This document shows positions 1-11,662 of a DNA stretch of 11,662 nucleotides, one piece after another. The stretch is from IMG/VR virus record IMGVR_UViG_2695420859_000009; one strand, 5' to 3'. Both the position numbers and the translations under genes were made by a program. This DNA is from a virus. Taxonomy: Duplodnaviria; Heunggongvirae; Uroviricota; Caudoviricetes. Under the pieces are notes generated by a model. That model was not told the DNA's origin, searched no databases, and saw nothing but the letters and a program-made list of their open reading frames with translations. The number at the start of each line of letters is the position of its first letter. The stretch's first letter is position 1.

Positions 1-116
1 CTGGCTTCATTGGCCCATTTCAGATCCTGCGCTGCATTAATTTTCTGGTGCATCCACTCATAAAGTTCATCATCGGTATAGTCTGGCGCGATGATGACGG
101 GTTCTCGTTTCTGCAT
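1..116 (-). CDS. Hypothetical prophage protein, N-terminal 38 codons only (gene continues past the window start)
   Basis: ATG at 116..114 (minus) preceded by GAGGAA Shine-Dalgarno 5 nt upstream; open frame to the window edge translating MQKREPVIIAPDYTDDELYEWMHQKINAAQDLKWANEA. Not in the ORF track because it is truncated. Confidence 0.45.
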   Translation of the reverse strand, partial: MQKREPVIIAPDYTDDELYEWMHQKINAAQDLKWANEA

Positions 117-145
117 ACTGATTCCTCGCGGTGCTGTTTCGCTTA

Positions 146-274
146 TCAGCCGTTAGATTTTGCCGAACTGGAAAGCGCCTGTTTAAATTCGTTGAAGCTG
201 AGAGCTTCTTCGCCTTCGGCAAGACCTTCGAAGTATTCTTCGTAAGCCTTTTCCATGATTGTGTCGAAATCCAT
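146..274 (-). CDS. Small hypothetical protein, 42 aa (MDFDTIMEKAYEEYFEGLAEGEEALSFNEFKQALSSSAKSNG), acidic; Rac-type small early-left ORF
   Basis: Hand translation of the minus strand: ATG at 274..272 with GGTGA-like SD, stop TGA at 148..146. Below the track size cutoff. Codon usage looks enterobacterial. The ydaF/ydaG-type naming is a guess from memory and is not assigned. Confidence 0.45.
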   Translation of the reverse strand: MDFDTIMEKAYEEYFEGLAEGEEALSFNEFKQALSSSAKSNG

Positions 275-275
275 A

Positions 276-431
276 TCACTCACCTGAGTTTCTTTCCAGC
301 CAGCGACGGGCACCATTTTCGGTTTTAAACGTTTTGCTTTTGTTATACGTCATCGCGGTGAACGTACCGTCCTGGTTGGGGAACACGCCACATACCAGAG
401 ATTCGCTGTTGCCAAGATCGATAGTATCCAT
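276..431 (-). CDS. Small hypothetical protein copy 1, 51 aa (MDTIDLGNSESLVCGVFPNQDGTFTAMTYNKSKTFKTENGARRWLERNSGE)
   Basis: Lies inside track ORF 276..512 (minus). The internal ATG at 431 has a GAGG SD a few nt upstream and is the more likely start. A near-identical paralog lies 335 bp away. Confidence 0.5.
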   Translation of the reverse strand: MDTIDLGNSESLVCGVFPNQDGTFTAMTYNKSKTFKTENGARRWLERNSGE

Positions 432-516
432 GCTGACCTCATTTCCCCTTAACGCCGGGGTAGCGGAACAAAAACCTGCTGCATAGTTATTAAAGTTGAA
501 CCCTGCCGTCATGTTC

Positions 517-609
517 TTACGCCTCGGGCTGGCTACTTAACCCCTGACCACTGCCTGGTAACTCGAAGTATTCTTCGTAAGCCTTTTCCATGATTGTGTC
601 GAAATCCAT
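517..609 (-). pseudogene. Duplication-generated 5' fragment of the 146..274 gene: first 15 codons (MDFDTIMEKAYEEYF) fused to 15 unrelated codons, then stop
   Basis: The unit junction at 563/564 cuts the copy of the small gene after codon 15. Minus-strand translation from ATG 609 gives MDFDTIMEKAYEEYFELPGSGQGLSSQPEA, stop at 519..517. Confidence 0.4.
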
Positions 610-610
610 A

Positions 611-766
611 TCACCCACCTGAATTTCTTTCCAGCCAGCGACGGGCACCATTTTCGGTTTTAAACGTTTTGCTTTTGGTATACGTCATCGCGGTGAACGT
701 ACCGTCCTGGTTGGGAAACACGCCGTACACCAGAGATTCGTTGTTGCCAAGATCGATAGTATCCAT
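611..766 (-). CDS. Small hypothetical protein copy 2, 51 aa (MDTIDLGNNESLVYGVFPNQDGTFTAMTYTKSKTFKTENGARRWLERNSGG)
   Basis: Paralog of 276..431 inside track ORF 611..847. Differs from copy 1 at four residues (S9N, C14Y, N30T, E51G) plus three synonymous sites. Confidence 0.5.
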   Translation of the reverse strand: MDTIDLGNNESLVYGVFPNQDGTFTAMTYTKSKTFKTENGARRWLERNSGG

Positions 767-949
767 GTTGACCTCATTTCCCCTTAACGCCGGGGTAGCG
801 GAACAAAAACCTGCTGCATAGTTATTAAAGTTGAACCCTGCCGTCATGTTCTTACGCCTCGGGCTGGCTACTTAACCCCTGACCACTGCCTGGTAACTCG
901 AAGTATTGCCCTGCATTCTGTGGGGTGGGGTGGGTTGGTATGAAAGGAA

Positions 950-989
950 GGATACCCATGGGTATCCAAAAAGTAAATACCCATGGGTA
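950..989. promoter_or_regulatory. Two operator-like palindromes (GGATACCCATGGGTATCC at 950..967; TACCCATGGGTA at 978..989) overlapping a candidate leftward promoter
   Basis: A perfect 18-bp palindrome and a perfect 12-bp palindrome sharing the core TACCCATGGGTA, centres 25 bp apart. On the minus strand they overlap TTTACT-N17-TATCCT, a weak sigma70-like promoter pointing at the small leftward genes. Confidence 0.45.
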
Positions 990-1031
990 ATTTTTTGATG
1001 TGTCTTAACTGGTGACTGGTTGTTTGGTGAG

Positions 1032-1451
1032 TTATGATGCGTTTTGTGCTTTCTTTTTACGGATTTCTTCGTAGATCATATTGTAATACTGTTTTTTCTC
1101 TTCAAGAGTTTTTAATAAGTTATCCGCTTCACTTTCTGGCAGTTCGTCTAAGAGATCTAAAAAAATACGTTGTCGTGGCGTTAGAACCCTTGTTTCATAA
1201 TTGGAGGCTGTGTTCGTTGATGATGAAACGATACCATCCATCCATCCCCGGGGTAACCCAAAGGACTCTTCTATAATCTCCACCATATCATCAGCGATCC
1301 GTTTTTTTCCTTTTTTCCCCTCTGGGTACAACATTCTTGATACATAAGAAGGCTCGCGACCGATCTTTCTGGCCACGTTAACCGCTTTACCATCGCATTT
1401 CTCATCACGAATTTTGATGAGTTGTTGTCGTCTAAATTCATATTTGTCCAT
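1032..1451 (-). CDS. racR: RacR-like prophage repressor (cI-type immunity repressor)
   Basis: Track ORF 1032..1493 (minus). The product from MDKYEFRRQQLIKIRDEKCDGKAVNVARKIGREPSYVSRMLYPEGKK matches my memory of Rac prophage RacR. ATG at 1451 is preferred; the track start at 1493 is a TTG and would place an operator-like site (1472..1483) inside the coding region. Start is uncertain. Confidence 0.75.
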   Translation of the reverse strand: MDKYEFRRQQLIKIRDEKCDGKAVNVARKIGREPSYVSRMLYPEGKKGKKRIADDMVEIIEESFGLPRGWMDGIVSSSTNTASNYETRVLTPRQRIFLDLLDELPESEADNLLKTLEEKKQYYNMIYEEIRKKKAQNAS

Positions 1452-1471
1452 AGGTAAATAATAGATGCGAT

Positions 1472-1528
1472 TACCGCAAGGTAAACAACCCAAGGGTATT
1501 GACTTTTGTTTACCTGTGGGTATTCTTT
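1472..1528. promoter_or_regulatory. Divergent promoter/operator region between racR and ydaS: three operator-like sites and a rightward -35/-10
   Basis: Sites TACCGCAAGGTA (1472..1483), AACCCAAGGGTA (1487..1498) and TACCTGTGGGTA (1511..1522) share TACC-N4-GGTA with the palindromes at 950..989. A candidate rightward promoter, TTGACT (1499..1504) with TATTCT (1521..1526) 16 bp downstream, overlaps the third site, just upstream of the ydaS SD AAGGAG. Confidence 0.4.
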
Positions 1529-1551
1529 GCTGTGTTTACTAAGGAGTAGCT

Positions 1552-1833
1552 ATGGAAGAATTAAGAATATTTCTCAATTCTCTTTCGTCAGATGAACAGC
1601 GTATGTTTGCATGTGAGTGTGGTACTAGCATCGGTTATCTAAGAAAGGCATTGAGTAAAGGTCAAATGTTAGGGGCATCGTTATGTGTCCTTATTGAGCG
1701 AGCCAGTAATGGTGAAGTTACACGTCAGCAACTAAGGCCTTTTGATTGGATGAATATTTGGCCCGAGCTGGAAGATACCAAAACGTTAACACAACCACTT
1801 ACTAGGAGCTTGATTCATGAAAATCAAGCATGA
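1552..1833 (+). CDS. ydaS: YdaS-like small HTH protein (Cro-like, first gene of the rightward operon)
   Basis: Track ORF with AAGGAG SD upstream of the ATG. It sits divergent from the repressor and upstream of a ydaT-like gene; the sequence matches my memory of Rac YdaS. Confidence 0.75.
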   Translation: MEELRIFLNSLSSDEQRMFACECGTSIGYLRKALSKGQMLGASLCVLIERASNGEVTRQQLRPFDWMNIWPELEDTKTLTQPLTRSLIHENQA

Positions 1834-2242
1834 ACACATCCGCATGGCGATGAATGCCTGGGCGCGTCCTGATGGCGAAAAAGTTCCAGCAGCTGGAATA
1901 ACCCAGGCTTATTTTGAGTTGGGTATGACGTTCCCAGAACTGTATGACGACAGCCATCCGGAAGCCCTGGCTCGCAATACCCAGAAAATTTTCCGCTGGG
2001 TAGAGAAAGACACCCCTGATGCAGTTGAAAAAATTCAGGCGTTGTTACCAGCGATCGAAAAGGCAATGCCACCTTTGCTGGTGGCCAGAATGCGCAGCCA
2101 CAGTTCAGCTTATTTTCGGGAGTTGGTGGAGACGCGGGAGCGACTGGTGAGAGACGCTGATGATTTTGTCGCAGTGGCAATCGCCGGTTTCAATCAGATG
2201 AACCGTGGTGGCCCGGCAGGAAATGCTGTGGCAGTACATTGA
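1817..2242 (+). CDS. ydaT: YdaT-like protein (toxic when derepressed in Rac)
   Basis: Track ORF overlapping the ydaS end by 17 nt, with AGGAG SD. Order and size match the Rac racR-ydaS-ydaT module. Confidence 0.75.
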   Translation: MKIKHEHIRMAMNAWARPDGEKVPAAGITQAYFELGMTFPELYDDSHPEALARNTQKIFRWVEKDTPDAVEKIQALLPAIEKAMPPLLVARMRSHSSAYFRELVETRERLVRDADDFVAVAIAGFNQMNRGGPAGNAVAVH

Positions 2243-2313
2243 CTGACAATAGCCATATCGAATCGCTTCCGGCAATTCGTGAGTAAAAAGATTCGGTATC
2301 AGAAGAGGTGAGT

Positions 2314-3384
2314 ATGGCTAACGCCTGGCTCAGATTATGGCATGACATGCCAAATGACCCTAAGTGGCGAACAATTGCCAGGGTGTCAGGGCAGCCAATT
2401 GCAACAGTGATGGCAGTGTATATCCACCTCCTGGTGAGCGCGTCACGAAATGTCACGCGAGGTCACATTGATGTCACGACAGAAGATTTGGCAAGTGCGC
2501 TCGACGTGACAGAAGAGGTAATTGATTCAATTTTGCAGACGATGCAGGGGCGGGTACTTGATGGTGATTTAATCACTGGATGGGAAAAACGCCAGGTGCT
2601 TAAAGAGGACAACGGCAATATTTCGCAAACCGCAAAATCTCCGGCAGAGCGCAAGAGGGCGCAGCGTGAGAGGGAAAGAAAGCGGGAACAAAATGGCGAT
2701 TGTCACGGCGCGTCACGAAATGTCACGCACATGTCACGACGAGTCACGACAGATAAAGATACAGATAGAGATACAGATAAAGAAGATCAAAACACTATGG
2801 TCCATGGCGTAAAAAACGCCACGAACCATGTAGGGGATGTTCAGACCGTCACTCCTGGCCAGCCCGCAGGCACGACACCGGAAGCCGATTCAGCGTATGC
2901 GCTGAAAGCCGATTCGGGCGCTGTGCAGCAGGCGATGACCGCTGGGCCGGAGCAATCACACCAACTGCAGCAGCCTGAAGCCGATTCCGCCATTCAGCGG
3001 GAAGCCGATCGGGTAGTCCCGGAAAACACCGGGCAGCCTGTGGGACGAGTGGATTATCCGGATGTGTTCGAACAGGTCTGGCGGGAATACCCGTTACGAG
3101 CCGGGGCAAACCCGAAGAAATCCGCTTTCAGTGCCTGGAAGGCCAGATTACGCGAGGGGGTGCCACCAGAGGCCATGCTGGATGGTGTAAGGCGTTACAC
3201 AAGATACCTGGCTGCTACCGGGAAAACGGGAACGGAATTTGTTCAGCGAGCGACGACGTTTTTTGGACCGGACCGGAATTTTGAAAACCCCTGGTTGCTC
3301 CCGGTAAGCGGCACGAACAACCAGCGTTGTGTTAATCATATTTCTGAACCGGACACCGAAATTCCGCCGGGATTCAGAGGGTAA
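2314..3384 (+). CDS. Phage replication initiator, lambda O-like (iteron-binding N-terminal part, acidic linker, C-terminal domain)
   Basis: Track ORF 2308..3384; ATG at 2314 with GAGGTGAG SD is preferred over GTG 2308. Two iteron clusters and an AT-rich GATA-repeat tract (encoding DKDTDRDTDKEDQ) lie inside the gene, as for ori-lambda inside gene O. It directly follows the immunity/cro-like operon. Confidence 0.65.
   Translation: MANAWLRLWHDMPNDPKWRTIARVSGQPIATVMAVYIHLLVSASRNVTRGHIDVTTEDLASALDVTEEVIDSILQTMQGRVLDGDLITGWEKRQVLKEDNGNISQTAKSPAERKRAQRERERKREQNGDCHGASRNVTHMSRRVTTDKDTDRDTDKEDQNTMVHGVKNATNHVGDVQTVTPGQPAGTTPEADSAYALKADSGAVQQAMTAGPEQSHQLQQPEADSAIQREADRVVPENTGQPVGRVDYPDVFEQVWREYPLRAGANPKKSAFSAWKARLREGVPPEAMLDGVRRYTRYLAATGKTGTEFVQRATTFFGPDRNFENPWLLPVSGTNNQRCVNHISEPDTEIPPGFRG
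2439..2480. repeat. Iteron cluster 1: GTCACG repeated at about 10-bp spacing
   Basis: GTCACG at 2442, 2452 and 2473 plus GTCACA at 2462. The 21-mer CGCGTCACGAAATGTCACGC is repeated exactly in cluster 2 at 2709..2729. Confidence 0.5.
2701..2800. repeat. Iteron cluster 2 (5 x GTCACG at 10-11 bp spacing) followed by an AT-rich GATA/GATACA repeat tract; candidate origin of replication
   Basis: GTCACG at 2702, 2712, 2722, 2733 and 2743, then AGATAAAGATACAGATAGAGATACAGATAAAGAAGATCAAAACACT (2751..2796). Iterons one helical turn apart beside an AT-rich unwinding element is the classic ori layout. Confidence 0.5.
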
Positions 3385-3421
3385 CAGATTTCAGGTCATG
3401 GGGTAATTTTCAGGAGGGCTT

Positions 3422-3697
3422 GTGGCAAAAGTTTTTACTCCCGAACTGCGGGAAGAAGTGAAGGCGCGCATTGTGGAACTGGTACGCAGAGATGGGCGAA
3501 AAACGCGTAAACAACTGGAAAATGAAACCGGGGCGACGAGACACCTGATAGAAGTTCTGGTGAAAGAGCTGGTAGTTAGTGGCGCAGTATATGGTTCAGG
3601 ACATGGAATATTTCCTTCGGAGCAGGCTCGTAAGGACTGGGGAAAAGCCCGCAAAAAAAATGTCGAGAGCGGCAGTGAAAAAGAAGAGCGACCCTGA
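3422..3697 (+). CDS. Small basic protein (91 aa, possible winged-helix DNA-binding), possibly frameshifted into the next ORF
   Basis: Track ORF; GTG start at 3422 with a strong AGGAGG SD 4 nt upstream. The frame ends shortly after an A8 homopolymer (3653..3660), and the +1 frame stays open for another 56 codons. Confidence 0.4.
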   Translation: MAKVFTPELREEVKARIVELVRRDGRKTRKQLENETGATRHLIEVLVKELVVSGAVYGSGHGIFPSEQARKDWGKARKKNVESGSEKEERP

Positions 3698-3830
3698 CCT
3701 GATTTATTCATTGCTAGATGGCGAAATACGCCGTTACAACAGACGACAGAATATAATTTGTCGCGAGTGTCGTCAGAGCGAAGTTATGCAGCGCATACTG
3801 GAATTTTATCAGGGAAATGTTCGGTATTAA
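3579..3830 (+). CDS. Overlapping-frame ORF; its 3' two-thirds (from about 3660) may be the C-terminal continuation of the 3422 gene
   Basis: Track ORF 3579..3830 overlaps 3422..3697 by 119 nt in the +1 frame. The tail LIYSLLDGEIRRYNRRQNIICRECRQSEVMQRILEFYQGNVRY looks protein-like. There is no good RBS for an independent start. Confidence 0.3.
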   Translation: MAQYMVQDMEYFLRSRLVRTGEKPAKKMSRAAVKKKSDPDLIYSLLDGEIRRYNRRQNIICRECRQSEVMQRILEFYQGNVRY

Positions 3831-3974
3831 TTGAAGTGACGAAATTAAAGAGCATTAGTTCAGATATTAATTGACACTTCGATGGCACAGGCCCAGACCT
3901 AGTCTGGTTGTCAGCTTTGAGCTAGGTGAACGTTGGTATCGTTAGTTTGTATTAATCAACGGAGAATAGGCCAA

Positions 3975-4005
3975 ATGACTTTTCTTTGCCTCTTTTAATT
4001 ATAAT
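3975..4005 (+). promoter_or_regulatory. Candidate sigma70 promoter in the AT-rich tract upstream of the 932-aa gene
   Basis: Perfect TATAAT at 4000..4005 with an ATGACT/TGACTT -35-like element 18-19 bp upstream (3975..3981). The gene SD AGGAA at 4063..4067 lies 6 nt before ATG 4074. Confidence 0.3.
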
Positions 4006-4073
4006 TCAAGTTCAATTGATTACATTGAAGTACTAATGTGAGTCCGTCAAACAAATAGCTCAAGGAATAGGTC

Positions 4074-6872
4074 ATGTGGGGAAGTGAAAACAAACAAAAT
4101 CTGGACGTACTGGATCCTGTGCAGTTGGTGCGTATCGAAGCGGTACACCGGGGGTTCCTTTACCAGCATCTTTACGCTGTAGGCTGCTTACTTTTGGCGC
4201 AGAGGGCAGCTATGGACTCAGTAACTGTCGAGCTTGATGAGGATATTGAGCTGAAATCCAAACAGGAACGTCTCTACATTCAGGTTAAAACCCGTTCAAA
4301 ACCTATTATGCCCAACGATGTGTCGGGGGCTCTGGAGCGATTTGTAAAGCTCAGAAATGAGCATACTTCGGCAAACCGCGAAGGGGTGGCTTCTTTTGTG
4401 ATTATTGTAAACCAGGCGCCTGGACCGCTGCTTCAGAAGATGATTGACGATAAAAAGCTTCCTTCTGATGTTCTTATTGTCTGGCCCCAGTCGACAGCTG
4501 GACGTCACCCGGCACTTCCGCCCGCATGGAGTACTCTGGCTGATGCGGCCACATGGTGTATCGCAGAAGCAGAAAAGCTGAAATTTTCACTATTGTCCCC
4601 AGAATCCTTGATTTGGAAGTTAGCAGGATTGGTTCAGCTTGCCGCCACCGGAGGCGATACCAATGGACAACATACGTTTTTCACGGAAGAACTTACTGAA
4701 CTATTTGAACAGTTGATCGTTCAGCTACAGGACTTTCCTGCACCACCAGCACTGTACCGCCCACAGAACGAAGAACCTTCTCTCACATCTGGTGAGCGGA
4801 TCCGTATCCTTTGTGGACTCTCAGGTGCAGGCAAGACAGCTTGGGCCGCACAGGCCGCATTACACTCCACTGCACTTTGTGCTTATTACGACACCGGTGA
4901 TCTTCCCGGTCCAGCTCTGGCCAGTACGCTGGTGCGCGAGATGGCTGCTAGATTTACAGCCCGTGACCAAGACGGTTTGCGCAGGATTTTGCTCCCCGGT
5001 GCCAGTGGTTTTGAGGCTCTTAGGAGTTTTGATACCTACCTGAAAGAGCAGGGTACCACCTTGGTGCTGGTTCTGGATAACGCCCATCGTGTACCTGCGG
5101 AAAATCTACTGGATGTTCTGAATGCAACTACACATATTCGTTTTGTGCTGTTGTGCCAGCCTCACGAAAACGTTCGCGAACTGGAGGTCATGACGGGGCT
5201 ACAGCGCGAGGGCCTGCAGGGATGGAATCTCGATACGGTAGCTGTCGTTGTAAACGATATCGGAGGATTTGCCACCGCTATGGGATACGAGCAGCTACGG
5301 GCTTACACTGGTGGTCTTCCCCTGTATGTAGAGAGCGCCGCAAAAATCGCCGTTTCTGATTATGAGCGTAATGTCGATGCTCTGTGTGCTGAACTCCAGC
5401 AACAAACCCATACTGCGGAAACCGCCCAAGAAATTATTCTGTCACGTGTATTTCAGGGATTTGAATCACTACTTCAGAGCGCGCTGGCATTGTTCAGTCT
5501 CTCTGACGTAGGGCTGAGTCGCGAAGAGATTTCTACGCTCCTAATCAATTCGCTGAACATTTCACCAAGCAGTGCTGCTTCTTTAATTAGGAAAATGCGC
5601 GCTACTGGCACTATTGAAATTTATGGAAACCAGACCCTGAAGGTACATGATGCTGTCAGGGGGCTAGGACTGCAACATCTGGAACTGATGGATCAGGGTA
5701 TATCGAACAAAGCGCTACTAGCGCTGAAAGACCTTTTAGTTGAAAGTCTTCATAATACCCGCAATACAAAACGGTTATCGTTGTTGACTCAACTTTATAT
5801 TAAGCTCAATGATGTCACGACGTTGATCGAACTCTCAGGCCAAGAAATGTTTTATGAGATGGGCGTGACGGTCGACATTCTTGCAAGCTTGGAGCGTGCT
5901 GCAACATCGGACTTATTGGGACCTGTTCATAAATTCTGGGCATTGGATGGCCTTGTTTTCGTTGAGCTTAAAGACGGAATATCCGACCACATTGCTCAGA
6001 GGTTAAACATCATGGGAGCTTTACTTGCGGAGCACAAGTTCGGCTATCAAGAAGAGATGGCCTATGCAATGAAACGAATGTTATTTTCGGCAGAAAGCAA
6101 TGATGCACGAGAAGTTCAAAAGCTGGCACAGGAAGTCCGCCCCCAACTCCCAGATGAAGAACATAAACGCATCTTTGACTACAACCATGCCATTGCACTC
6201 TGGAGATTAAAAAAACTCAAGGATGCTGAAACATTAAGCTGTAATGTTATACAAGGGTACTATTCTTTATTTGGTATCACACCTGCTGATGTCATAGGAA
6301 AAAACGCCGACGCATTATGGAAAACTATTAATCATTCCGAAAATATGCAGGAACACTTTAAACATATGGCTGATGCTCTGGAGTTGCTGGCCAGAATTCG
6401 TGATGCGCAGGGAAAACTGTCACCATTACTGCGTATTCATTCGATGAAGTTCTACAATCTGGCCATGGCCCCGGAATCCATGGTCAGGGTGGGCCAAGAT
6501 CTGGCGGATGAGTTTGTTGCCATAAAGGATTACGACGGTGCCAAGGAAGTCATGGAGCAACATGTCCTGCCGGTTGTCAATGAGGCAGGTCTAGTACATC
6601 GACTGATTCAGGTTCGAAGCCAATACGCAGTCATATTAGCACTATCGGGTCAGCATAAAGCAGCTGATGTCGAAATGCAGCGCCTTGCTCCCTATATCGA
6701 AGGCCTCACAGGTGTACAGCGTCAAGAAATCCAAAATCAATCAAATTACATCGTACAGCTTGCCCATAAAGCAGCAAAGACTAAATTAACTGAAGTTTTT
6801 GGTGCGGTCGGCCGGAATGAACAATGCCCCTGTGGCTCGGGAATAAAGTACAAAAAATGTCACGGTGCCTGA
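4074..6872 (+). CDS. Large multidomain protein (932 aa): N-terminal PD-(D/E)xK-like nuclease-type region, STAND/NB-ARC-like P-loop NTPase, helical repeat region, C-terminal SEC-C zinc-binding motif; candidate single-gene antiphage (Avs-like) defence protein
   Basis: Track ORF with AGGAA SD. Walker A GLSGAGKT (residues 248-255, nt 4815..4838); Walker B LVLVLDN (D335 at nt 5076..5078); GLPL motif at residues 413-416 as in NB-ARC/STAND NTPases. N-terminal GFLYQ...VELDEDIELKS...IQVK resembles Cap4/Mrr-type nuclease signatures (from memory). Terminal CPCGSGIKYKKCHG (residues 918-931, nt 6825..6866) matches the SEC-C motif. About 450 residues of the C-terminal half are predominantly helical by eye. 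The gene is flanked by AT-rich intergenic DNA. Confidence 0.85.
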   Translation: MWGSENKQNLDVLDPVQLVRIEAVHRGFLYQHLYAVGCLLLAQRAAMDSVTVELDEDIELKSKQERLYIQVKTRSKPIMPNDVSGALERFVKLRNEHTSANREGVASFVIIVNQAPGPLLQKMIDDKKLPSDVLIVWPQSTAGRHPALPPAWSTLADAATWCIAEAEKLKFSLLSPESLIWKLAGLVQLAATGGDTNGQHTFFTEELTELFEQLIVQLQDFPAPPALYRPQNEEPSLTSGERIRILCGLSGAGKTAWAAQAALHSTALCAYYDTGDLPGPALASTLVREMAARFTARDQDGLRRILLPGASGFEALRSFDTYLKEQGTTLVLVLDNAHRVPAENLLDVLNATTHIRFVLLCQPHENVRELEVMTGLQREGLQGWNLDTVAVVVNDIGGFATAMGYEQLRAYTGGLPLYVESAAKIAVSDYERNVDALCAELQQQTHTAETAQEIILSRVFQGFESLLQSALALFSLSDVGLSREEISTLLINSLNISPSSAASLIRKMRATGTIEIYGNQTLKVHDAVRGLGLQHLELMDQGISNKALLALKDLLVESLHNTRNTKRLSLLTQLYIKLNDVTTLIELSGQEMFYEMGVTVDILASLERAATSDLLGPVHKFWALDGLVFVELKDGISDHIAQRLNIMGALLAEHKFGYQEEMAYAMKRMLFSAESNDAREVQKLAQEVRPQLPDEEHKRIFDYNHAIALWRLKKLKDAETLSCNVIQGYYSLFGITPADVIGKNADALWKTINHSENMQEHFKHMADALELLARIRDAQGKLSPLLRIHSMKFYNLAMAPESMVRVGQDLADEFVAIKDYDGAKEVMEQHVLPVVNEAGLVHRLIQVRSQYAVILALSGQHKAADVEMQRLAPYIEGLTGVQRQEIQNQSNYIVQLAHKAAKTKLTEVFGAVGRNEQCPCGSGIKYKKCHGA

Positions 6873-7149
6873 GTCTTTGTACGACCATGCGGGCCTTATT
6901 GTCTTGCTATTGCTCTTATGGTTCGCCTTTCTGATTGATTTCATATTGGCGAGGTGACGGGAGTTAAGTAGAATGGCTGCGGGTGCTTGAGGCTATCTGT
7001 CTCAGGCATGAACACCAAAGGCAGATAGAGAAAAGCCCCAGTTAACATTACGCGTCCTGCAAGACGCTTAACATTAATCTGAGGCTCAATCTATGAACGG
7101 CAAATCTAGGTTAGCCTCTTACGTGCCGAAAGGCAAGGAGAAGCAGGCT

Positions 7150-7305
7150 ATGAAGCAGCAAAAGGCGATGTTAATCGTCCTGATCGTCATCTGTTTAACC
7201 GTCATAGTGACGGCACTGGTAACGAGGAAAGACCTCTGCGAGGTACGAATCCGAACCGGCCAGACGGAGGTCGCTGTCTTCACAGCTTACGAACCTGAGG
7301 AGTAA
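7150..7305 (+). CDS. hokD: Hok/Gef-family type I toxin (51 aa membrane peptide)
   Basis: MKQQKAMLIVLIVICLTVIVTALVTRKDLCEVRIRTGQTEVAVFTAYEPEE matches the Hok/RelF family as I remember it. SD AGGAG at 7136..7140. The track ORF 7093..7305 adds an in-frame 19-codon 5' extension. Downstream rem-like and ydfU-like genes fit the Qin hokD neighbourhood. Confidence 0.85.
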   Translation: MKQQKAMLIVLIVICLTVIVTALVTRKDLCEVRIRTGQTEVAVFTAYEPEE

Positions 7306-7373
7306 GAGACCAGGCGGGGGAGAAATCCCTCGCCACCTCTGATGTGTCAGGCATCCTCAATGCACCCGCACTT

Positions 7374-7400
7374 AACCCGCTTCGGCGGGTTTTGTTTTTT
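7374..7400 (+). terminator. Rho-independent terminator / 3' stem-loop of the hok mRNA
   Basis: Stem CCCGC (7376..7380), loop TTCG, stem GCGGG (7385..7389), followed by TTTTGTTTTTT (7390..7400). Confidence 0.55.
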
Positions 7401-7472
7401 CCTGGCATTCTGGTTTACAATTCGCACGCCAGCCTGAACAACTGGCACCTGCTGCGCCAGCAGAGACAACCG

Positions 7473-7751
7473 ATGGCGCACGATACCAAATTACACAATT
7501 CTAATGATTCTGCTGTCTTTGCCAGCAGGTGCGGACGGCGTTTTCACGCATTCACATCAGACTGGTTCCAGCATCCTCCATGCACTGAAGAGCAGGCTGA
7601 ATGGATAATTCAGTGTTACCGCAGGCGTGGATACGAGGTTAAGAAAGCTCTTAGTCTCGACTATCGTCACTGGATAATCTCAGTCAGACTCCCTTACTCC
7701 GAACGCCCACCGCGTCCGTCCCGCACATTCCAGCAACGCATCTGGAGGTAA
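7473..7751 (+). CDS. Small hypothetical protein in the rem position of Qin-like prophages (92 aa from ATG 7473)
   Basis: Track ORF 7344..7751, but its first 43 codons span the terminator hairpin, so the internal ATG at 7473 is preferred. Its SD is weak. The rem-like call rests on synteny only. Confidence 0.4.
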   Translation: MAHDTKLHNSNDSAVFASRCGRRFHAFTSDWFQHPPCTEEQAEWIIQCYRRRGYEVKKALSLDYRHWIISVRLPYSERPPRPSRTFQQRIWR

Positions 7752-7752
7752 C

Positions 7753-8808
7753 GTGCGGGTATTACTTCGACCTGTTCTGGTACCGGAACTCGGGCTGGTG
7801 ATCGTTAAGCCGGGCCGTGAATCCATGCCGGTATTCCACAATACCCGGGTACTGGTGGAGCCGGAACCGAAAAGCATGCGTAATCTGCCGTCCGGGGTCG
7901 TTCCTGCCGTTCGCCAGCCGCTGGTGGAAGACAAAACATTGCTGCCGTTTTTCAGTAACGCACGGGTGATTCGTGCTGCTGGTGGTGCTGGTGCATTGTC
8001 TGACTGGCTGTTGCGCCATATTAAATCCTGCCAGTGGCCACACGGCGATTATCATCACAGCGAAACCGTCATTCACCGTTATGGTACCGGCGCAATGGTG
8101 TTGTGCTGGCACTGCGACAACCAGTTGCGTGACCAGACCTCCGAATCACTCGGGCAACTTGCTCATCAAAACCTGTCAGCATGGATGATTGACGTCATCG
8201 GTCACGCAATAAGCGGTACGCAGGAGCGTGAATTATCTCTGGCTGAATTATCCTGGTGGGCGGTCCGCAATCAGGTGGCGGACGCGCTACCGGAAGCGGT
8301 ATTACGTCGTTCGCTGGGGTTGCGTGCGGAAAAAATCCGCTCAATGTACCGTGAAAGCGACATCGTGCCGGGAGAGCAGACCGCCACCAGCATACTGAAG
8401 CAGCGCACAAAAAATCTTGCGCCGATGCCTCACGCCCACCAGCAAAACCCGCCACAGGAAAAGACGGTGGTAAGCATTGCCGTTGATCCGGAGTCACCGG
8501 CTCAGTATCTCCAGCGCCAGAAACCACAACGGGAAGAGATGCCCGTATACACGCGCTGGGTAAAAACGCAGAAATGCATGACGTGTGACAATCAGGCAGA
8601 TGATCCGCATCACATCATTGGTCATGGACTAGGAGGGATGGGAACGAAGGCTGACGATTTGTTTGTTATTCCGCTGTGCCGTAAATGTCATAACGAACTG
8701 CACGCCGGGGTAAAAGATTTTGAAGAAAAACACGGCAGCCAGCTGTTGTTGCTGATTCGTTTTTTAATGCACGCGAGAAATTCGGGCGTCCTGAAGTGGA
8801 AAGCATAA
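7753..8808 (+). CDS. ydfU: YdfU-like DUF968 protein with a C-terminal HNH-type nuclease motif
   Basis: Track ORF with GTG start and GGAGG SD. C-terminal CMTCDNQADDPHHIIGHGLGGMGTKADDLFVIPLCRKCHNELH (nt 8575..8703) has the C-x2-C ... HH ... C-x2-C-H-x3-H arrangement of HNH nucleases. Size (351 aa) and position match Qin YdfU as I remember it. Confidence 0.7.
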   Translation: MRVLLRPVLVPELGLVIVKPGRESMPVFHNTRVLVEPEPKSMRNLPSGVVPAVRQPLVEDKTLLPFFSNARVIRAAGGAGALSDWLLRHIKSCQWPHGDYHHSETVIHRYGTGAMVLCWHCDNQLRDQTSESLGQLAHQNLSAWMIDVIGHAISGTQERELSLAELSWWAVRNQVADALPEAVLRRSLGLRAEKIRSMYRESDIVPGEQTATSILKQRTKNLAPMPHAHQQNPPQEKTVVSIAVDPESPAQYLQRQKPQREEMPVYTRWVKTQKCMTCDNQADDPHHIIGHGLGGMGTKADDLFVIPLCRKCHNELHAGVKDFEEKHGSQLLLLIRFLMHARNSGVLKWKA

Positions 8809-9174
8809 ATGACTGAACGCATAGAATTTGTTTTGCCTTACCCGCCAACGGTGAATACTTACTGGCGACGTCGTGGCAGCACATATTTTGTATCAAAAGT
8901 CGGTGAGCGTTATCGCCGTGATGTGGCACTAATTGTTCGCCAGCAGCGGTTGAAATTAAACCTGTCCGGAAGGCTGGCAATAAAAATTATTGCAGAGCCA
9001 CCGGATAAGCGCCGTCGTGACCTGGACAATATCCTGAAGGCACCACTGGATGCACTGACGCATGCGGGGCTGCTCATAGACGACGAGCAGTTTGATGAAA
9101 TCAATATTGTGCGCGGTCAGCTTGTTCCTGGTGGGCGGTTGGGGATAAAAATCACAGAACTGGGGTGCGCATGA
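8809..9174 (+). CDS. rusA: RusA-family Holliday junction resolvase
   Basis: 121-aa product with LPYPPTVNTYWRRRG, PDKRRRDLDNILKAPLDALT and GGRLGIKITELG, matching RusA motifs (catalytic acidic cluster around RRRDLDN). The start ATG abuts the ydfU stop (TAAATG). Confidence 0.85.
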   Translation: MTERIEFVLPYPPTVNTYWRRRGSTYFVSKVGERYRRDVALIVRQQRLKLNLSGRLAIKIIAEPPDKRRRDLDNILKAPLDALTHAGLLIDDEQFDEINIVRGQLVPGGRLGIKITELGCA

Positions 9175-9860
9175 ATAACCAGTATTTACAGTTTGTGCGT
9201 GAGCAGCTCATTATCGCCACCGCTGATTTGAGTGGGGCAACAAAAGGTCAGCTTGAAGCCTGGCAGGAGAATGCCATGTTCGATACAGGGCGTTACAGGC
9301 GTAAAAAAATCCGGTACCGCGATGAAGTGACTGGAAAAATGATAACGCGGGATAATCCCCCAATCCCGGGAAAGCAATCGCTGGCGAAGGGGACGTCAAT
9401 TCCTCTGGTCAGTCCGATTGAGTTTTCGACATCATCGTGGCGGCGGGCTGTTCTGTCTCTTGAAGAACATCATAAAGCCTGGTTGTTGTGGTGTTACAGC
9501 GGGAGTATTTGTTGGGAATATCAGATCGCGATAACACAGTGGGCGTGGAATGAATTTAATACTCAATCCGGTACCAGAAAAATTGCAGGGAAAACGCAGG
9601 AACGCCTGAAAAAATTAATCTGGCTGGCGGCGCAGGCAGTAAAAGCAGAACTTTTTGGTGGGGAAGGTTATGAATACAAGGAGCTGGCATTACTGGTGGG
9701 AGTGACAACTAAAAACTGGTCCAAAACATTTACTCGTCACTGGGTTGCAATGAAACACATTTTTCACCGACTGGATAGTGAGGCTTTATTGTTTGTAATG
9801 AGAACGCGTTCAAAACAAAAGGCGGCATTTTCAAAGCAAAGTGTTGCAAAAGTAGATTGA
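9171..9860 (+). CDS. Late-gene antiterminator Q-like protein (function inferred mainly from position)
   Basis: Track ORF 9165..9860. ATG 9171 overlaps the rusA stop (ATGA). It is the last gene before a promoter, a short-transcript terminator and a tRNA cluster, which is the layout downstream of Q in lambdoid and Stx phages. The sequence itself is not confidently recognised. Confidence 0.5.
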   Translation: MNNQYLQFVREQLIIATADLSGATKGQLEAWQENAMFDTGRYRRKKIRYRDEVTGKMITRDNPPIPGKQSLAKGTSIPLVSPIEFSTSSWRRAVLSLEEHHKAWLLWCYSGSICWEYQIAITQWAWNEFNTQSGTRKIAGKTQERLKKLIWLAAQAVKAELFGGEGYEYKELALLVGVTTKNWSKTFTRHWVAMKHIFHRLDSEALLFVMRTRSKQKAAFSKQSVAKVD

Positions 9861-9872
9861 AAGGCATATATT
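9844..9872 (+). promoter_or_regulatory. Candidate late promoter (pR-prime-like) overlapping the end of the Q-like gene
   Basis: TTGCAA (9844..9849), 17-bp spacer, TATATT (9867..9872). The terminator about 55 nt downstream would give a short leader transcript, as at lambda pR-prime/tR-prime. Confidence 0.3.
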
Positions 9873-9923
9873 TCATGCAAATCTGATATTTTGCCGATTT
9901 TGTACGTGATGGCAAAAGCAAAC

Positions 9924-9950
9924 AAAACCCGCCCACAAGCGGGTTTTTTT
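9924..9950 (+). terminator. Rho-independent terminator (tR-prime-like)
   Basis: AAAA CCCGC CCACAA GCGGG TTTTTTT: 5-bp GC stem (9928..9932 / 9939..9943), 6-nt loop, 7-T run (9944..9950), with flanking A/T extension. Confidence 0.75.
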
Positions 9951-10070
9951 GTGCCACTTATCTCGGATAGACATGGTGAATGCGCTGGTGGAGGAAGCAA
10001 GGGTAATTTTTAACCAGGTGATTCTTGAATGCTTGCAACATTGATTTCGTAACGTTATTATCCTGCGCCC

Positions 10071-10146
10071 GGCCCTTTAGCTCAGTGGTGAGAGCGAGCG
10101 ACTCATAATCGCCAGGCCGCTGGTTCAAATCCAGCAAGGGCCACCA
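10071..10146 (+). tRNA. tRNA with CAU anticodon, closest to Ile2 (lysidine-type ileX/ileZ-like) rather than Met
   Basis: Cloverleaf folded by hand: acceptor GGCCCUU/AAGGGCC, anticodon loop CUCAUAA (CAU at 10104..10106), T-arm GCUGG-UUCAAAU-CCAGC, discriminator A, encoded CCA. Highly similar to E. coli ileX from memory. Confidence 0.8.
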
Positions 10147-10153
10147 TCACATA

Positions 10154-10230
10154 CCGCCATTAGCTCATCGGGATAGAACGCCAGCCTTCGAAGCTGGTTT
10201 CGCGGGGTTCGAGTCTCCGATGGCGGTCCA
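10154..10230 (+). tRNA. tRNA-Arg (anticodon UCG)
   Basis: Acceptor CCGCCAU/AUGGCGG, anticodon stem CCAGC/GCUGG with loop CUUCGAA, T-loop UUCGAGU, discriminator U, encoded CCA. Confidence 0.75.
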
Positions 10231-10243
10231 TTATCGGTATTCT

Positions 10244-10320
10244 GCGTTTTTAGCTCAGCCGGACAGAGCAATTGCCTTCTAAGCAATCGGTCACTGGTTC
10301 GAACCCAGTACAACGCACCA
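10244..10320 (+). tRNA. tRNA-Arg (anticodon UCU, argU/argO-like)
   Basis: Acceptor GCGUUUU/ACAACGC (one mismatch), anticodon loop CUUCUAA (UCU at 10278..10280), T-arm CUGG-UUCGAAC-CCAG, encoded CCA. Resembles argU from memory. Confidence 0.75.
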
Positions 10321-10489
10321 CACTTATTTTCCCTCGCTCGCTTTTGCGGACCTTTTTTGTATCCGCACCACGCCCGGCGCATACCAACCACAGAGCCTTT
10401 CGGGGGGAGCTTATGGAGTGGTCAGTGTGACTTTCTCTGTGGGCAGATCGCTCCCGGGCGTTGGCTCACCCACCCAAAGGAACGTCACG

Positions 10490-10922
10490 ATGTTTGGTAT
10501 TTTTGGTAAAAAAAGCCCGCAGAGCGGCAACGGAAATTAGAAAGTTTGAAAAACGCGATCTGGCACAGGTGGTGATTAACGCCGCATACCTGGTGGCCTG
10601 TGCAGATGGTGAATGTGAGGCTTCCTAGAAAGCGAAGATCGAACAGGTACTGCGTAATCAGCCTGCGCTGTACGCGTTTACGTCAGAAATTAATGCGATT
10701 AGCGCAACCATTATCGGTCAGCTGGATACGAACTTTAAAACTGGTCGTCGTGCGGCGTTACGTGAGATCGAGGATGTGAAACACGATACGCGTGAAGCGG
10801 AAGATGTGCTGGATGTGGCGGTGGCCATTGCGGAGGCAGACGGCGAAATTGAGCCGGAAGAGCGCAAGGTGCTGGAAGAGATTGCCGGTGTTCTGGGTCT
10901 TCGTCTGGAGAATTACCTGTGA
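10490..10922 (+). pseudogene. TerB-like (two ADGE motifs) gene disrupted by a frameshift at an A7 run and an in-frame amber codon
   Basis: ATG 10490 with AAGGA SD reads MFGIFGKKSPQSGNGN then stops. The other frame from the A7 run (10508..10514) reads KKARRAATEIRKFEKRDLAQVVINAAYLVACADGECEAS, then TAG at 10626..10628, then KAKIEQVLRNQ...VAVAIAEADGEIEPEERKVLEEIAGVLGLRLENYL to TGA 10920..10922. No ATG-initiated ORF covers the region, so the track misses it. Confidence 0.55.
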
Positions 10923-11086
10923 CGGTAAAACTGCGCCTGACTGTGGCTGCACTCCTGCTGTTTCTGGTGGTGATGGTGGATTTCACCAGCAGAATCATGT
11001 CGGTGCTGGCGGATGGGGTGCTGGTCTGCGGCATTATGGTATTGCTGTGGCCGGTGATAAAAAGAAACAGCCTGCATAATGCTTGA
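10919..11086 (+). CDS. Possible small hydrophobic (two-helix membrane) peptide, 55 codons from GTG or 37 from ATG 10973
   Basis: Open frame VTVKLRLTVAALLLFLVVMVDFTSRIMSVLADGVLVCGIMVLLWPVIKRNSLHNA with CTG-rich enterobacterial codon usage, overlapping the preceding stop (GTGA). No strong RBS. Confidence 0.25.
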   Translation: MTVKLRLTVAALLLFLVVMVDFTSRIMSVLADGVLVCGIMVLLWPVIKRNSLHNA

Positions 11087-11287
11087 TTTTTTTGTTTGCT
11101 GTTTATTAAAAACACTTCTGCATGGTGAATCCCCCTGTGCGGTGGGGCAATCAGCAAGAAGGAATATGGGGTAATCGCGGATTCAGGTGCTGATACTGAA
11201 TTCACCGGGAGGCACCCGGCACCATGCTTTGCCACAAAAGTGTTATTTCTGTTTTTCTCAAACTATCATCGTTATCCCTTTATTTTC

Positions 11288-11314
11288 GGCTGCGCATGGC
11301 GCGGCCTTTTTTTT
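11288..11314 (+). terminator. Candidate rho-independent terminator
   Basis: GGCTGCGC ATG GCGCGGCC (8-bp stem with one mismatch, 3-nt loop) followed by T8 (11307..11314). Confidence 0.45.
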
Positions 11315-11400
11315 ACGACCAGCCACTGGCAGATGGTCATCCTGTGATTTGATTCCGCTTCCGGCTTTTTAACTCTGTTCCTCTACACGGGAGAAATTCG

Positions 11401-11662
11401 ATGTCGATTAAACATTATGATGTTGTCAGGGCGGCGTCGCCGTCAGACCTTGCGGAAAAGCTGACACACAAACTGAAAGAGGGCTGGCAGCCATACGGCG
11501 GACCGGTTGCCATTACGCCGTACACACTGATGCAGGCGGTGGCTATTGAAGGAGAGCCACAGGTCGGCCCTTCATCTGAGCCGGATTGGTACTACGTCAT
11601 CGTACTGGCCGGGCAGTCCAATGCCATGGCTTACGGTGAAGGGCTTCCGCTGCCGGATTCAT
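11401..11662 (+). CDS. N-terminus of a NanS-p-like prophage sialate O-acetylesterase (DUF1737-type N-terminal domain, then start of SASA esterase domain); continues past the window end
   Basis: ATG 11401 with GGGAGA SD. Translation MSIKHYDVVRAASPSDLAEKLTHKLKEGWQPYGGPVAITPYTLMQAVAIEGEPQVGPSSEPDWYYVIVLAGQSNAMAYGEGLPLPDS includes the GQSN esterase motif. In Stx-type lambdoid phages this gene follows the Q-tRNA-stx region. Confidence 0.7.
   Translation, partial: MSIKHYDVVRAASPSDLAEKLTHKLKEGWQPYGGPVAITPYTLMQAVAIEGEPQVGPSSEPDWYYVIVLAGQSNAMAYGEGLPLPDS

Follow-up and report, generated by a model that had tools for sequence, protein, structure and literature searches.

The probable late-gene control region of a defective lambdoid Escherichia coli prophage, with a tRNA cassette and a cargo slot

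The window analysed here is a stretch of 11,662 nucleotides from a virus record of the Caudoviricetes (IMGVR_UViG_2695420859_000009). Its right-hand part carries a gene for the antiterminator Q, a late promoter (pR') and a terminator (tR') with a short leader RNA between them, a second promoter (pT) followed by three tRNA genes, the remnant of a terminator hairpin, a tciA pseudogene and an intact tciB gene, a small RNA gene of the STnc100 family, a further terminator, and the 5' part of an esterase gene (Table 1). At the sequence level, the identities, homologies and boundaries of these modules were established by comparison with related phages and prophages.

Table 1. Features of the late-region locus, with positions in the 11,662-nucleotide window
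Feature	Position	Strand	Evidence
Q antiterminator gene, Q82 family, 229 aa, apparently intact	9171..9860	+	PF06323, phage 82 Q, PGAP
Predicted late promoter pR', Q82 type	9844..9872	+	consensus scan, conserved core
Predicted short terminated late-leader RNA, ~75 nt, pR' to tR'	9876..9953 (start 9876/9879)	+	folding, IsrJ position
TGATATTTT, extended -10-like element, candidate sigma-dependent pause element	9884..9892	+	conservation
Intrinsic terminator tR', AAAACCCGC-CCACAA-GCGGGTTTTTTT	9924..9953	+	terminator scan, RNAfold
Predicted promoter pT of the tRNA cassette, TTGCAA-17-TATTAT, G+C-rich discriminator CCTGCGCC	10033..10061	+	consensus scan, 933W homology
tRNA CAU, Ile2 (ileZ/ileX) type	10071..10146	+	ARAGORN, Rfam 72.5 bits, 75/76 to 933W ileZ
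tRNA-Arg UCG, argN-like	10154..10230	+	ARAGORN, Rfam 44.4 bits, 71/77 to 933W argN
tRNA-Arg UCU, argO-like	10244..10320	+	ARAGORN, Rfam 63.3 bits, 73/77 to 933W argO
Decayed post-tRNA terminator hairpin remnant, left border of cargo slot	10335..10358	+	homology, folding
tciA (TerB-family) pseudogene	10490..10922	+	translation, JLK-2012 alignment, PF05099, PGAP
tciB, DUF3927 small membrane protein, 55 aa, intact	10919..11086	+	PF13064 E = 1.7e-16; WP_000216649.1
STnc100/PasD-family sRNA gene, right border of slot	11091..11263	+	Rfam RF02076
Intrinsic terminator between STnc100 and esterase gene	11288..11314	+	terminator scan, RNAfold
Probable NanS-p-type esterase gene, 5' part, runs off window	11401..11662	+	PF08410 (DUF1737) E = 9.8e-17

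The antiterminator belongs to the Q82 family. It matches the PF06323 profile over 217 of 220 positions (E = 9.5e-93; 310.3 bits against a cut-off of 25), with the assignment of Pfam entries to Q families taken from the literature (PMC9388147), and it aligns with phage 82 Q over its full length without gaps (175/229 residues identical, 76%). In a genome that is 99.9% identical, the PGAP annotation of this gene reads 'bacteriophage antitermination protein Q'. As in the Q82 family, the gene stands directly upstream of a late promoter with a -10-like candidate pause element and a terminator. An earlier note on this DNA, made from the letters and reading frames alone, had listed an antiterminator-like gene, a promoter and a terminator, and all three were found where it placed them (PF06323; 9844-9872; 9924-9953). 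Its description of this trio as Stx-phage-style had to be abandoned: the trio is of the Q82 type, and no true Stx phage in the INPHARED collection holds either Q or the promoter-terminator segment. A tblastn search with Q against the 50,697 phage records of that collection alone yielded 73 matching records, none from a true Stx phage; those labelled 'Stx2a-converting' are composite records only, in which the match lies inside the non-Stx prophage PPompW. Likewise, no true Stx phage was among the 27 INPHARED blastn matches of the pR'-tR' segment.

The predicted late promoter begins within the last codons of Q with the -35 hexamer TTGCAA (9844-9849), followed by a 17-nt spacer and the -10 hexamer TATATT (9867-9872). 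Its core is common to phage 434, Gifsy-1 and phages of Klebsiella, Enterobacter and Salmonella. Over 50 nt, the core is kept in Q82-family phages of four genera, each with its own terminator after it, and it is 86-90% conserved although the Q proteins are only ~60% identical. Its position relative to the Q stop codon is the same in phage 82, phage 434 and five other phages; for phage 82, the comparison covers the -35 hexamer and the start of the spacer only, as the GenBank record stops at the Q stop codon, ending in ATTGCAAAACTGGATTAA at the pR' position. Further on, the element TGATATTTT sits at about +6 to +14 of the predicted transcript, and its TGrTAT portion (here TGATAT, 9884-9889) is invariant in 8/8 aligned Q82-type promoters. 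By analogy with the general Q mechanism (PMC9388147), it is a candidate pause element for Q loading; the putative pause and Q-binding elements were assigned from conservation. The tR' hairpin (-13.0 kcal/mol by RNAfold) is followed by seven U residues, and a terminator lies 30-60 nt downstream of every related Q82-type promoter. The terminator scan had placed tR' on the minus strand.

Between them, pR' and tR' would define a terminated leader RNA that is predicted to fold into two hairpins (-24.3 kcal/mol). Against the Rfam isrJ family (RF01393), this RNA scores 24.5 bits (E = 0.075; gathering score 37); judged from the sequence, it is a positional and promoter homologue of IsrJ and not a member by the Rfam criterion. 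IsrJ is a Salmonella sRNA reported as needed for efficient invasion. The RNA has been detected experimentally from Gifsy-1, where isrJ starts 4 nt after the same Q82-type -10 element that is found here. The two RNAs have in common a Q82-type promoter, the first ~14 nt, a length of ~74 nt in IsrJ, two hairpins and an end at an intrinsic terminator; however, the sequences of hairpin 1 and of the terminator in IsrJ are not those of the E. coli leader. Salmonella IsrJ appears to be the terminated leader of the Q82-type late promoter of Gifsy-1, a link that is not stated in the literature we found. When six leader RNAs were submitted to RNAalifold, only the terminator hairpin was recovered, with 2 compensatory pairs; no covariation is claimed for hairpin 1, because the leaders are of two sequence types that MAFFT left unaligned. 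Separately, Rfam matches below threshold at 9852-9953, among them amino-acid operon leaders and OrzO-P, were discounted as generic similarity to a hairpin followed by a terminator.

StxS, which is made from 933W-type promoters, acts in trans in lysogens. By analogy, the leader RNA might belong to a class of constitutive, Hfq-binding regulatory RNAs that arise from Q82-type promoters and act in trans in lysogens, a tentative idea that we regard as rather doubtful. If trans-acting sRNAs were a general product of Q82-type late promoters, an unrecognised regulator would be present in many lysogens of E. coli, Klebsiella and Enterobacter. The IsrJ link is the one point at this locus that could repay experiment.

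Homology to the Stx2 phage 933W starts exactly at pT (10033). By segment, identity is at chance level before pT (14/43), 32/38 over pT, which in 933W is annotated as 'pT; putative tRNA promoter', 39/51 after the tRNAs, and 13/36 thereafter. The annotated order in 933W is pT, ileZ, argN, argO, terminator and stx2AB, and an experimentally mapped primary transcription start site drives the tRNAs of the Sakai Stx2a phage (PMC7547250). The three tRNAs with anticodons CAU, UCG and UCU proposed in the earlier note stand: ARAGORN accepted all of them at 10071-10320, as did Rfam (gathering score 29 bits). So does their match to ileZ-argN-argO, since true homologues occur in 933W in the same order and with near-identical spacing. 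The cloverleaf of the CAU tRNA is fully paired and includes C4-G69 and C5-G68. These two acceptor-stem pairs, together with a CAU anticodon, distinguish Ile2 from tRNA-Met, as is known from work on TilS. Whereas ARAGORN labels this tRNA Met from the anticodon alone, PGAP calls it tRNA-Ile, and 933W ileZ is annotated as an AUA reader; after lysidine modification, the tRNA is expected to read AUA. The UCG tRNA has one D-stem mismatch (C11.A24) and the UCU tRNA one acceptor-stem mismatch (U6.C67), neither of which is present in 933W argN (54.8 bits in Rfam) or argO, respectively.

The whole cassette (10033-10358) would supply decoders for AUA, AGA/AGG and CGA/CGG. Together, AUA, AGA, AGG, CGA and CGG account for 35.5 of every 1000 codons in 24 genes of the prophage versus 12.8 in 42 host core genes, an approximately threefold excess (Fisher p = 3e-19). 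As pT is a predicted sigma-70 promoter of its own, the cassette could be expressed in the lysogen besides being part of the antiterminated late transcript. Some of the module is damaged, however. The post-tRNA hairpin reaches -11.9 to -14.8 kcal/mol in 933W, in phage JLK-2012, in PPompW and in an empty allele but only -4.4 kcal/mol here, owing to two substitutions. With this decay and the mismatches in two tRNAs, some components may have lost their function. The earlier note did not mention pT, the decay of this terminator hairpin or the STnc100 gene. A literature search on ileZ-argN-argO, on TciA/TciB and on a rare-codon role of Stx phage tRNAs found nothing usable.

From the post-tRNA hairpin (~10359-10371) to the STnc100 gene (~11100) runs a cargo slot. 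When 933W, JLK-2012 and an empty E. coli allele are compared, a single slot proves to serve for both stx2AB and tciAB: it holds stx2AB in 933W, intact tciAB in JLK-2012, and a dead tciA with tciB here, while in the empty allele of strain 23CRST049 just 6 nt separate the hairpin from the STnc100 promoter. Relative to the intact JLK-2012 gene, tciA has a +1 A insertion in the A-run at 10508-10514; in addition, GAG has become TAG at 10626-10628. The PF05099 domain is recognizable in its C-terminal part (E = 1e-7), the reading frame is not intact, and PGAP flags an 'internal stop'. The small hydrophobic ORF that follows encodes TciB, for which PADLOC made no defence-system assignment. Elsewhere, PADLOC reported for a 932-aa SEC-C protein a weak LmuA-like N-terminal match and nothing more. 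No stx gene was found, the 1080 bases from the tRNAs to the esterase gene being fully assigned to other features, and the slot gave no alignment with the stx2AB segment of 933W.

The right border of the slot, the STnc100 gene, scores 100.8 bits in Rfam (gathering score 47) over 173 nt of the 206-nt model. It is without the 3' hairpin of the model and without the upstream TTGAC(A/T) -35 region of 933W and JLK-2012; the family lies directly 3' of stx2B in 933W and of tciB in JLK-2012. The terminator that follows has 8 pairs, 7 of them G-C, and a T-run (-15.4 kcal/mol by RNAfold). Of the esterase, DUF1737 is seen within the window; the SASA part is known via the annotation of the 99.9%-identical genome (H31), beyond the window end, as a full-length SASA family carbohydrate esterase of 616 aa. 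The remaining elements of the earlier note were borne out: a decayed TerB-like gene, a small hydrophobic ORF, a probable NanS-p-like esterase, and a late-region cargo site in a non-Stx state. The alignment with the 933W late region that it had proposed places the stx position between the post-tRNA hairpin and STnc100.

Taken together, the locus is very probably the late-gene control region of a defective lambdoid E. coli prophage, built from known exchangeable modules. From the sequence, we infer that the promoters are active, that Q loads and allows read-through, and that the tRNAs function. pR' would fire constitutively, and RNA polymerase would halt at tR', giving the leader RNA of ~75 nt. 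After induction, Q would be made and would load onto polymerase paused at the TGATAT element; the Q-loaded polymerase would be terminator-resistant and would read into everything downstream, where the slot is followed by STnc100, the probable NanS-p-type esterase gene and lysis genes. The prophage adjoins tRNA-Ser/mtfA. Its integrase and DUF977 genes are frameshifted, and IS1203 is located after the esterase gene; it is a decaying mosaic of known modules. The arrangement is common and already annotated: of the 5426 complete E. coli genomes searched, 664 contain at least 80% of 10033-11420. In all, 3298 E. coli genomes match the cassette.

Alternative readings of single parts carry little weight. 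If the pR'-tR' pair were a chance match, late transcription would begin elsewhere; this is very unlikely, even though the scans alone would permit it. The consensus scan found 5 promoter-like sites against 1.7 +/- 1.2 in shuffled sequence, which is not significant alone, pR' and pT each score only 9/12, and terminator-like sites were not enriched in the terminator scan. Yet the core is preserved at a fixed place after Q in phages with diverged Q proteins, a terminator always follows it, and the IsrJ RNA, which has been detected by experiment, arises from this core in Gifsy-1. Similarly, the tRNAs could be leftovers of host tRNA genes used for phage integration rather than cargo, and a recent preprint does interpret tRNA matches close to the sRNAs of prophages as signs of integration hot spots (10.64898/2026.05.13.724894). 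We reject this as scarcely credible, since the tRNAs lie mid-prophage in late-gene orientation behind a promoter of their own, ~14.7 kb away from the tRNA-Ser next to the integrase gene. Moreover, the free phage 933W genome holds the same cassette, array composition differs between sister prophages, and the anticodons fit codons that are enriched in the prophage.

More consideration is due to the proposal that this is a degraded Stx prophage, i.e., a former Stx-converting phage from which stxAB was lost by deletion or replacement. The tRNA cassette, STnc100 and nanS-p are common to 933W, and the prophage is decaying. The stx2 and tciAB cassettes also both start with a (G/A)TATCTGCGCC motif, so that recombination could have exchanged one for the other. 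Nevertheless, 933W has an unrelated Q, pR' and tR', no true Stx phage record of INPHARED contains those seen here, no remnant of stx is present, and intact tciAB occupies the same slot of the non-Stx JLK-2012 next to a different Q and different tRNAs. In addition, a 98.3%-identical sister prophage has an Ile-Lys-Thr-Gly tRNA array with a holin gene directly after it. These observations point to module shuffling rather than toxin loss, and we consider descent from a Stx phage unlikely.

Read as an assembly of exchangeable modules, the locus confirms that Stx2 phages have, at the stx position, a cargo slot that is general and polymorphic and may be empty or hold tciAB or stx. It also confirms that the cassette of rare-codon tRNAs travels among phages whose antiterminators are unrelated. 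For the origin of toxin phages, both points are helpful background but already implicit in published comparisons and annotation; by itself, the locus is of little weight.

Each module has its closest counterparts in different known systems. With 933W, the locus shares pT, the three tRNAs in order (spacers of 7-9 and 13 nt), the post-tRNA hairpin, STnc100 and the esterase gene (L0105/nanS-p). Unlike 933W, it is without stx2AB, in whose place stand the tciA pseudogene and tciB, and without AsxR, it has decay mutations in two tRNAs and the hairpin, and its Q, pR' and tR', of the Q82 type, are unrelated; 933W Q is a different, shorter protein. With the Q/pR' system of the phage 82 type, seen also in phage 434, it shares the -35 TTGCAA in the last Q codons, the promoter core, TGrTAT and a terminator soon after. 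In phage 434, however, there is no tRNA cassette, tR' is followed by membrane-protein genes, tciB and an esterase gene, and the body of the leader RNA is unlike the one here. The tciA-tciB cassette is 92.7% identical to that of JLK-2012, in the same slot and likewise followed by STnc100 and yjhS/nanS-p, but JLK-2012 has an intact tciA, an Asn-Thr-Gly tRNA array and a different Q. Finally, PPompW, a non-Stx prophage of E. coli O157 (e.g., LC567836), has Q, pR', tR' and pT that are 95-97% identical to those described here and shares the first and third tRNAs; its middle tRNA is annotated as Lys, and its slot is cut by ISEc20, with terminase genes directly after.

The earlier note called this locus a Stx-phage-style arrangement of Q, late promoter, terminator and three tRNAs without stx genes. 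All of the features that it listed, namely the tRNAs, the Q ORF, the promoter-terminator pair, the TerB-like gene, the hydrophobic ORF and the esterase, are present (see table), and it interpreted the tRNAs, the genes after them and the cargo slot correctly. The Stx-phage label, however, does not hold for Q, the promoter or the terminator, and an STnc100 sRNA gene was overlooked.

Features of the late locus, with identity to the Stx2 phage 933W where compared
Feature	Coordinates	Strand	Evidence or sequence	Identical to 933W
Q ORF	9171-9860	+	full-length PF06323 match, E = 9.5e-93	
Late promoter-like site	9844-9872		TTGCAA-17-TATATT	
Terminator-like site	9924-9953		hairpin then seven T	
Before pT	9990-10032			14/43 (chance level)
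pT (tRNA cassette promoter)	10033-10070		TTGCAA-17-TATTAT, then G+C-rich CCTGCGCC, then tRNA 1	32/38
tRNA 1, anticodon CAT	10071-10146	+	ARAGORN; Rfam 72.5 bits	75/76
tRNA 2, anticodon TCG	10154-10230	+	ARAGORN; Rfam 44.4 bits	71/77
tRNA 3, anticodon TCT	10244-10320	+	ARAGORN; Rfam 63.3 bits	73/77
Post-tRNA hairpin segment	10321-10371			39/51
Beyond hairpin	10372-10400			13/36 (chance level)
tciA, pseudogene	10490-10922		TerB family	
tciB, intact	10919-11086		DUF3927 ORF	
STnc100/PasD-family sRNA gene	11091-11263		Rfam 100.8 bits; right border of slot	
Esterase ORF	start 11401		N-terminal DUF1737	

Of the three mutually unrelated Q families, PF06323 represents Q82, the structural mechanism of which is still open (PMC9388147). 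The window Q and that of phage 82, a protein characterized biochemically, are identical at 175 of 229 positions without gaps, whereas the Q of 933W is a different, shorter protein. A tblastn search of 50,697 phage records returned 73 matches to the window Q, including phages 82 and 434, Gifsy-1, and Klebsiella, Enterobacter, Salmonella and N15-like phages, with no true Stx phage among them; the sole "Stx2a-converting" records matched are composites, in which the match falls within PPompW, a non-Stx prophage of E. coli O157. Likewise, the promoter-terminator segment had no match in any true Stx phage in the phage-record search. Its 50-nt promoter core is 86-90% identical in Klebsiella and Enterobacter phages, the Q proteins of which are only ~60% identical. 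In an alignment of seven phages and Gifsy-1, TTGCAAAA...CATATATTTCATGyAAATyTGrTAT is almost invariant, and in each phage the core is then followed by a different intrinsic terminator. The phage 82 record terminates in ...ATTGCAAAACTGGATTAA, with the same -35 element within the final Q codons. By analogy with the general Q mechanism, we read the invariant TGrTAT, at about +6 to +11 of the transcript, as a candidate sigma-dependent pause element and Q-loading site, and the conserved spacer as a likely Q-binding element.

Gifsy-1 (NC_010392.1), whose Q belongs to the Q82 family and is 67% identical to the window Q, has this promoter core too: in locus L014, TTGCAA (4015-4020) and TATATT (4038-4043) are separated by 17 nt, and the promoter and isrJ together take up 4015-4121. 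Between Q and the core, an isrK-C4-anrP module is inserted. Because the Gifsy-1 isrJ match (Rfam, 100.3 bits) begins 4 nt 3' of the -10 element of this conserved promoter, Salmonella IsrJ seems to be the leader RNA that starts at the Gifsy-1 late promoter pR' and ends at its terminator. IsrJ (~74 nt) has been detected by experiment and is highly expressed in lysogens; it is reportedly required for efficient invasion (10.1101/787010). In the window, a permissive Rfam threshold gave full-length, sub-threshold matches to isrJ (24.5 bits; gathering score 37) and to isrK at 9876-9948, and the putative leader RNA (9876-9953) would be the positional homologue of IsrJ. Antiterminated promoters have been proposed as a source of sRNAs, with short late RNAs noted for phage 82 (PMC7547250); the link between IsrJ and a late promoter is absent from that paper, on StxS, and from the isrK-locus paper (PMC4825925).

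Megablast of 9100-11662 against phage records matched 361 records, mostly Stx-converting phages, and in 933W-like phages the match is split in two pieces on either side of stx2AB. The segment-wise identities therefore delimit a shared block at 10033-10371, the left edge of which lies exactly at the 933W feature "pT; putative tRNA promoter." That the cassette has its own promoter has experimental support from the Sakai Stx2a phage, in which a start site for the tRNAs was mapped (PMC7547250), and the pT layout appears to resemble that of stringently controlled stable-RNA promoters. All three tRNAs exceed the Rfam gathering score of 29 bits. In the tRNA 1 cloverleaf all stems are paired, including C4-G69 and C5-G68; tRNA 2 has a D-stem mismatch (C11.A24) and tRNA 3 an acceptor-stem mismatch (U6.C67), whereas their 933W counterparts lack both and score higher (54.8 and 68.1 bits). 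The ARAGORN "Met" label for tRNA 1 derives from the anticodon alone; PGAP calls tRNA-Ile in four independent genomes, and 933W ileZ is annotated as reading AUA. Judging from related sequences, array composition is itself variable: Ile-Lys-Thr-Gly with a holin gene directly after in a sister prophage (98.3% identity over 1-10230), Ile-Lys-Arg and then an IS element in PPompW, Asn-Thr-Gly in the non-Stx Escherichia phage JLK-2012, and none in phage 434.

Codon usage in 24 annotated prophage genes (4907 codons) was set against that in 42 host core genes (10,410 codons), all from one genome. Per 1000 codons, AUA (7.7 versus 3.3), AGA (8.2 versus 2.2), AGG (5.7 versus 0.7), CGA (5.7 versus 1.7) and CGG (8.2 versus 4.9) together reach 35.5 in the prophage and 12.8 in the host (Fisher p = 3e-19). 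This excess fits the standard view of the cassette as decoders for codons commoner in phage than in host.

The point at which stx2AB would lie was located by comparison with 933W, JLK-2012 and E. coli 23CRST049. The last carries an "empty" allele, in which the three tRNAs and hairpin GGCTCGCTTTTGTGGGCCTTTTTTTT are followed by 6 nt and then CACAATTCAGGCGGTTGACTGTTG, the sequence preceding STnc100 in 933W and JLK-2012; the slot therefore spans from just after the hairpin (~10359-10371) to ~11100. It holds tciAB (~0.77 kb) in JLK-2012 and the window, and stx2AB (~1.34 kb) in 933W. The STnc100 family lies directly 3' of stx2B in 933W (207.7 bits) and directly 3' of tciB in JLK-2012. Since both cassettes start with (G/A)TATCTGCGCC, a recombinational replacement is just as probable as an insertion, and these comparisons fit change in either direction. 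The tciAB cassette start (10380-10405, ATACCAACCACAGAGCCTTTCGGGG) is also like a Gifsy-1 stretch 3' of isrJ (L014 4168-4190, ATACAACCATAGAGCCTTTCAGAAG), possibly one more short mosaic segment that the two have in common. In 23CRST049 (L012 1440-3415), a DNA methyltransferase gene lies directly 5' of pT, while STnc100 and the esterase gene are separated by iraM; 933W carries an apparent 3' end of the same methyltransferase gene upstream of pT. This arrangement and the apparent remnant suggest that the tRNA cassette once travelled together with the methyltransferase gene.

Relative to intact JLK-2012 tciA, the window copy carries two lesions: one A too many within the run 10508-10514, and TAG in place of GAG at 10626-10628. 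The post-tRNA hairpin is predicted at -4.4 kcal/mol, versus -11.9 to -14.8 in four relatives, and the window STnc100 lacks both the upstream TTGAC(A/T) -35 region of 933W and JLK-2012 and the 3' hairpin of the Rfam model and 933W version. Given the weak hairpin, dead tciA, two tRNA stem mismatches and reduced STnc100 copy, the module may be just partly functional.

The source prophage is matched at 99.9% identity across the full window length by one in E. coli Z1323HEC0108 (NZ_CP148374), which adjoins tRNA-Ser and mtfA; in this near-identical genome the esterase gene encodes a 616-aa SASA esterase. With frameshifted integrase and DUF977 genes and an IS1203 copy 3' of the esterase gene, that prophage is defective. 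The main difference is a 335-bp tandem duplication close to the window start (228-907; 2.0 copies, 97% matching). This duplication, absent from NZ_CP148374, leaves the window with two copies of a small minus-strand ORF from the ydfB/DUF1391 region. Elsewhere, tandem repeats at 2701-2783 (10-mer TGTCACGACA x5 and a 12-mer x2.9), within a 358-aa ORF (2308-3384), resemble origin iterons within a lambda O-like replication gene. A 932-aa ORF (4074-6872) is a possible anti-phage defence gene carried by the prophage; its N-terminus is Cap4-nuclease-like (weak PADLOC LmuA match, E = 5e-7), and it also has AAA ATPase domains and, at its C-terminus, a SEC-C motif. The replication genes lie on one side of it and, on the other, a hok/sok type I toxin-antitoxin module (6981-7305; Rfam sok 110 bits), for which the matching genome has a hokD annotation.

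Of 5426 complete E. coli genomes, 664 contain at least 80% of 10033-11420, and 451 records reach ≥99% identity. A cattle strain has the same tciA pseudogene and Q type. All parts of the locus are PGAP-annotated or in curated families, and the locus is a mosaic of an already known kind.
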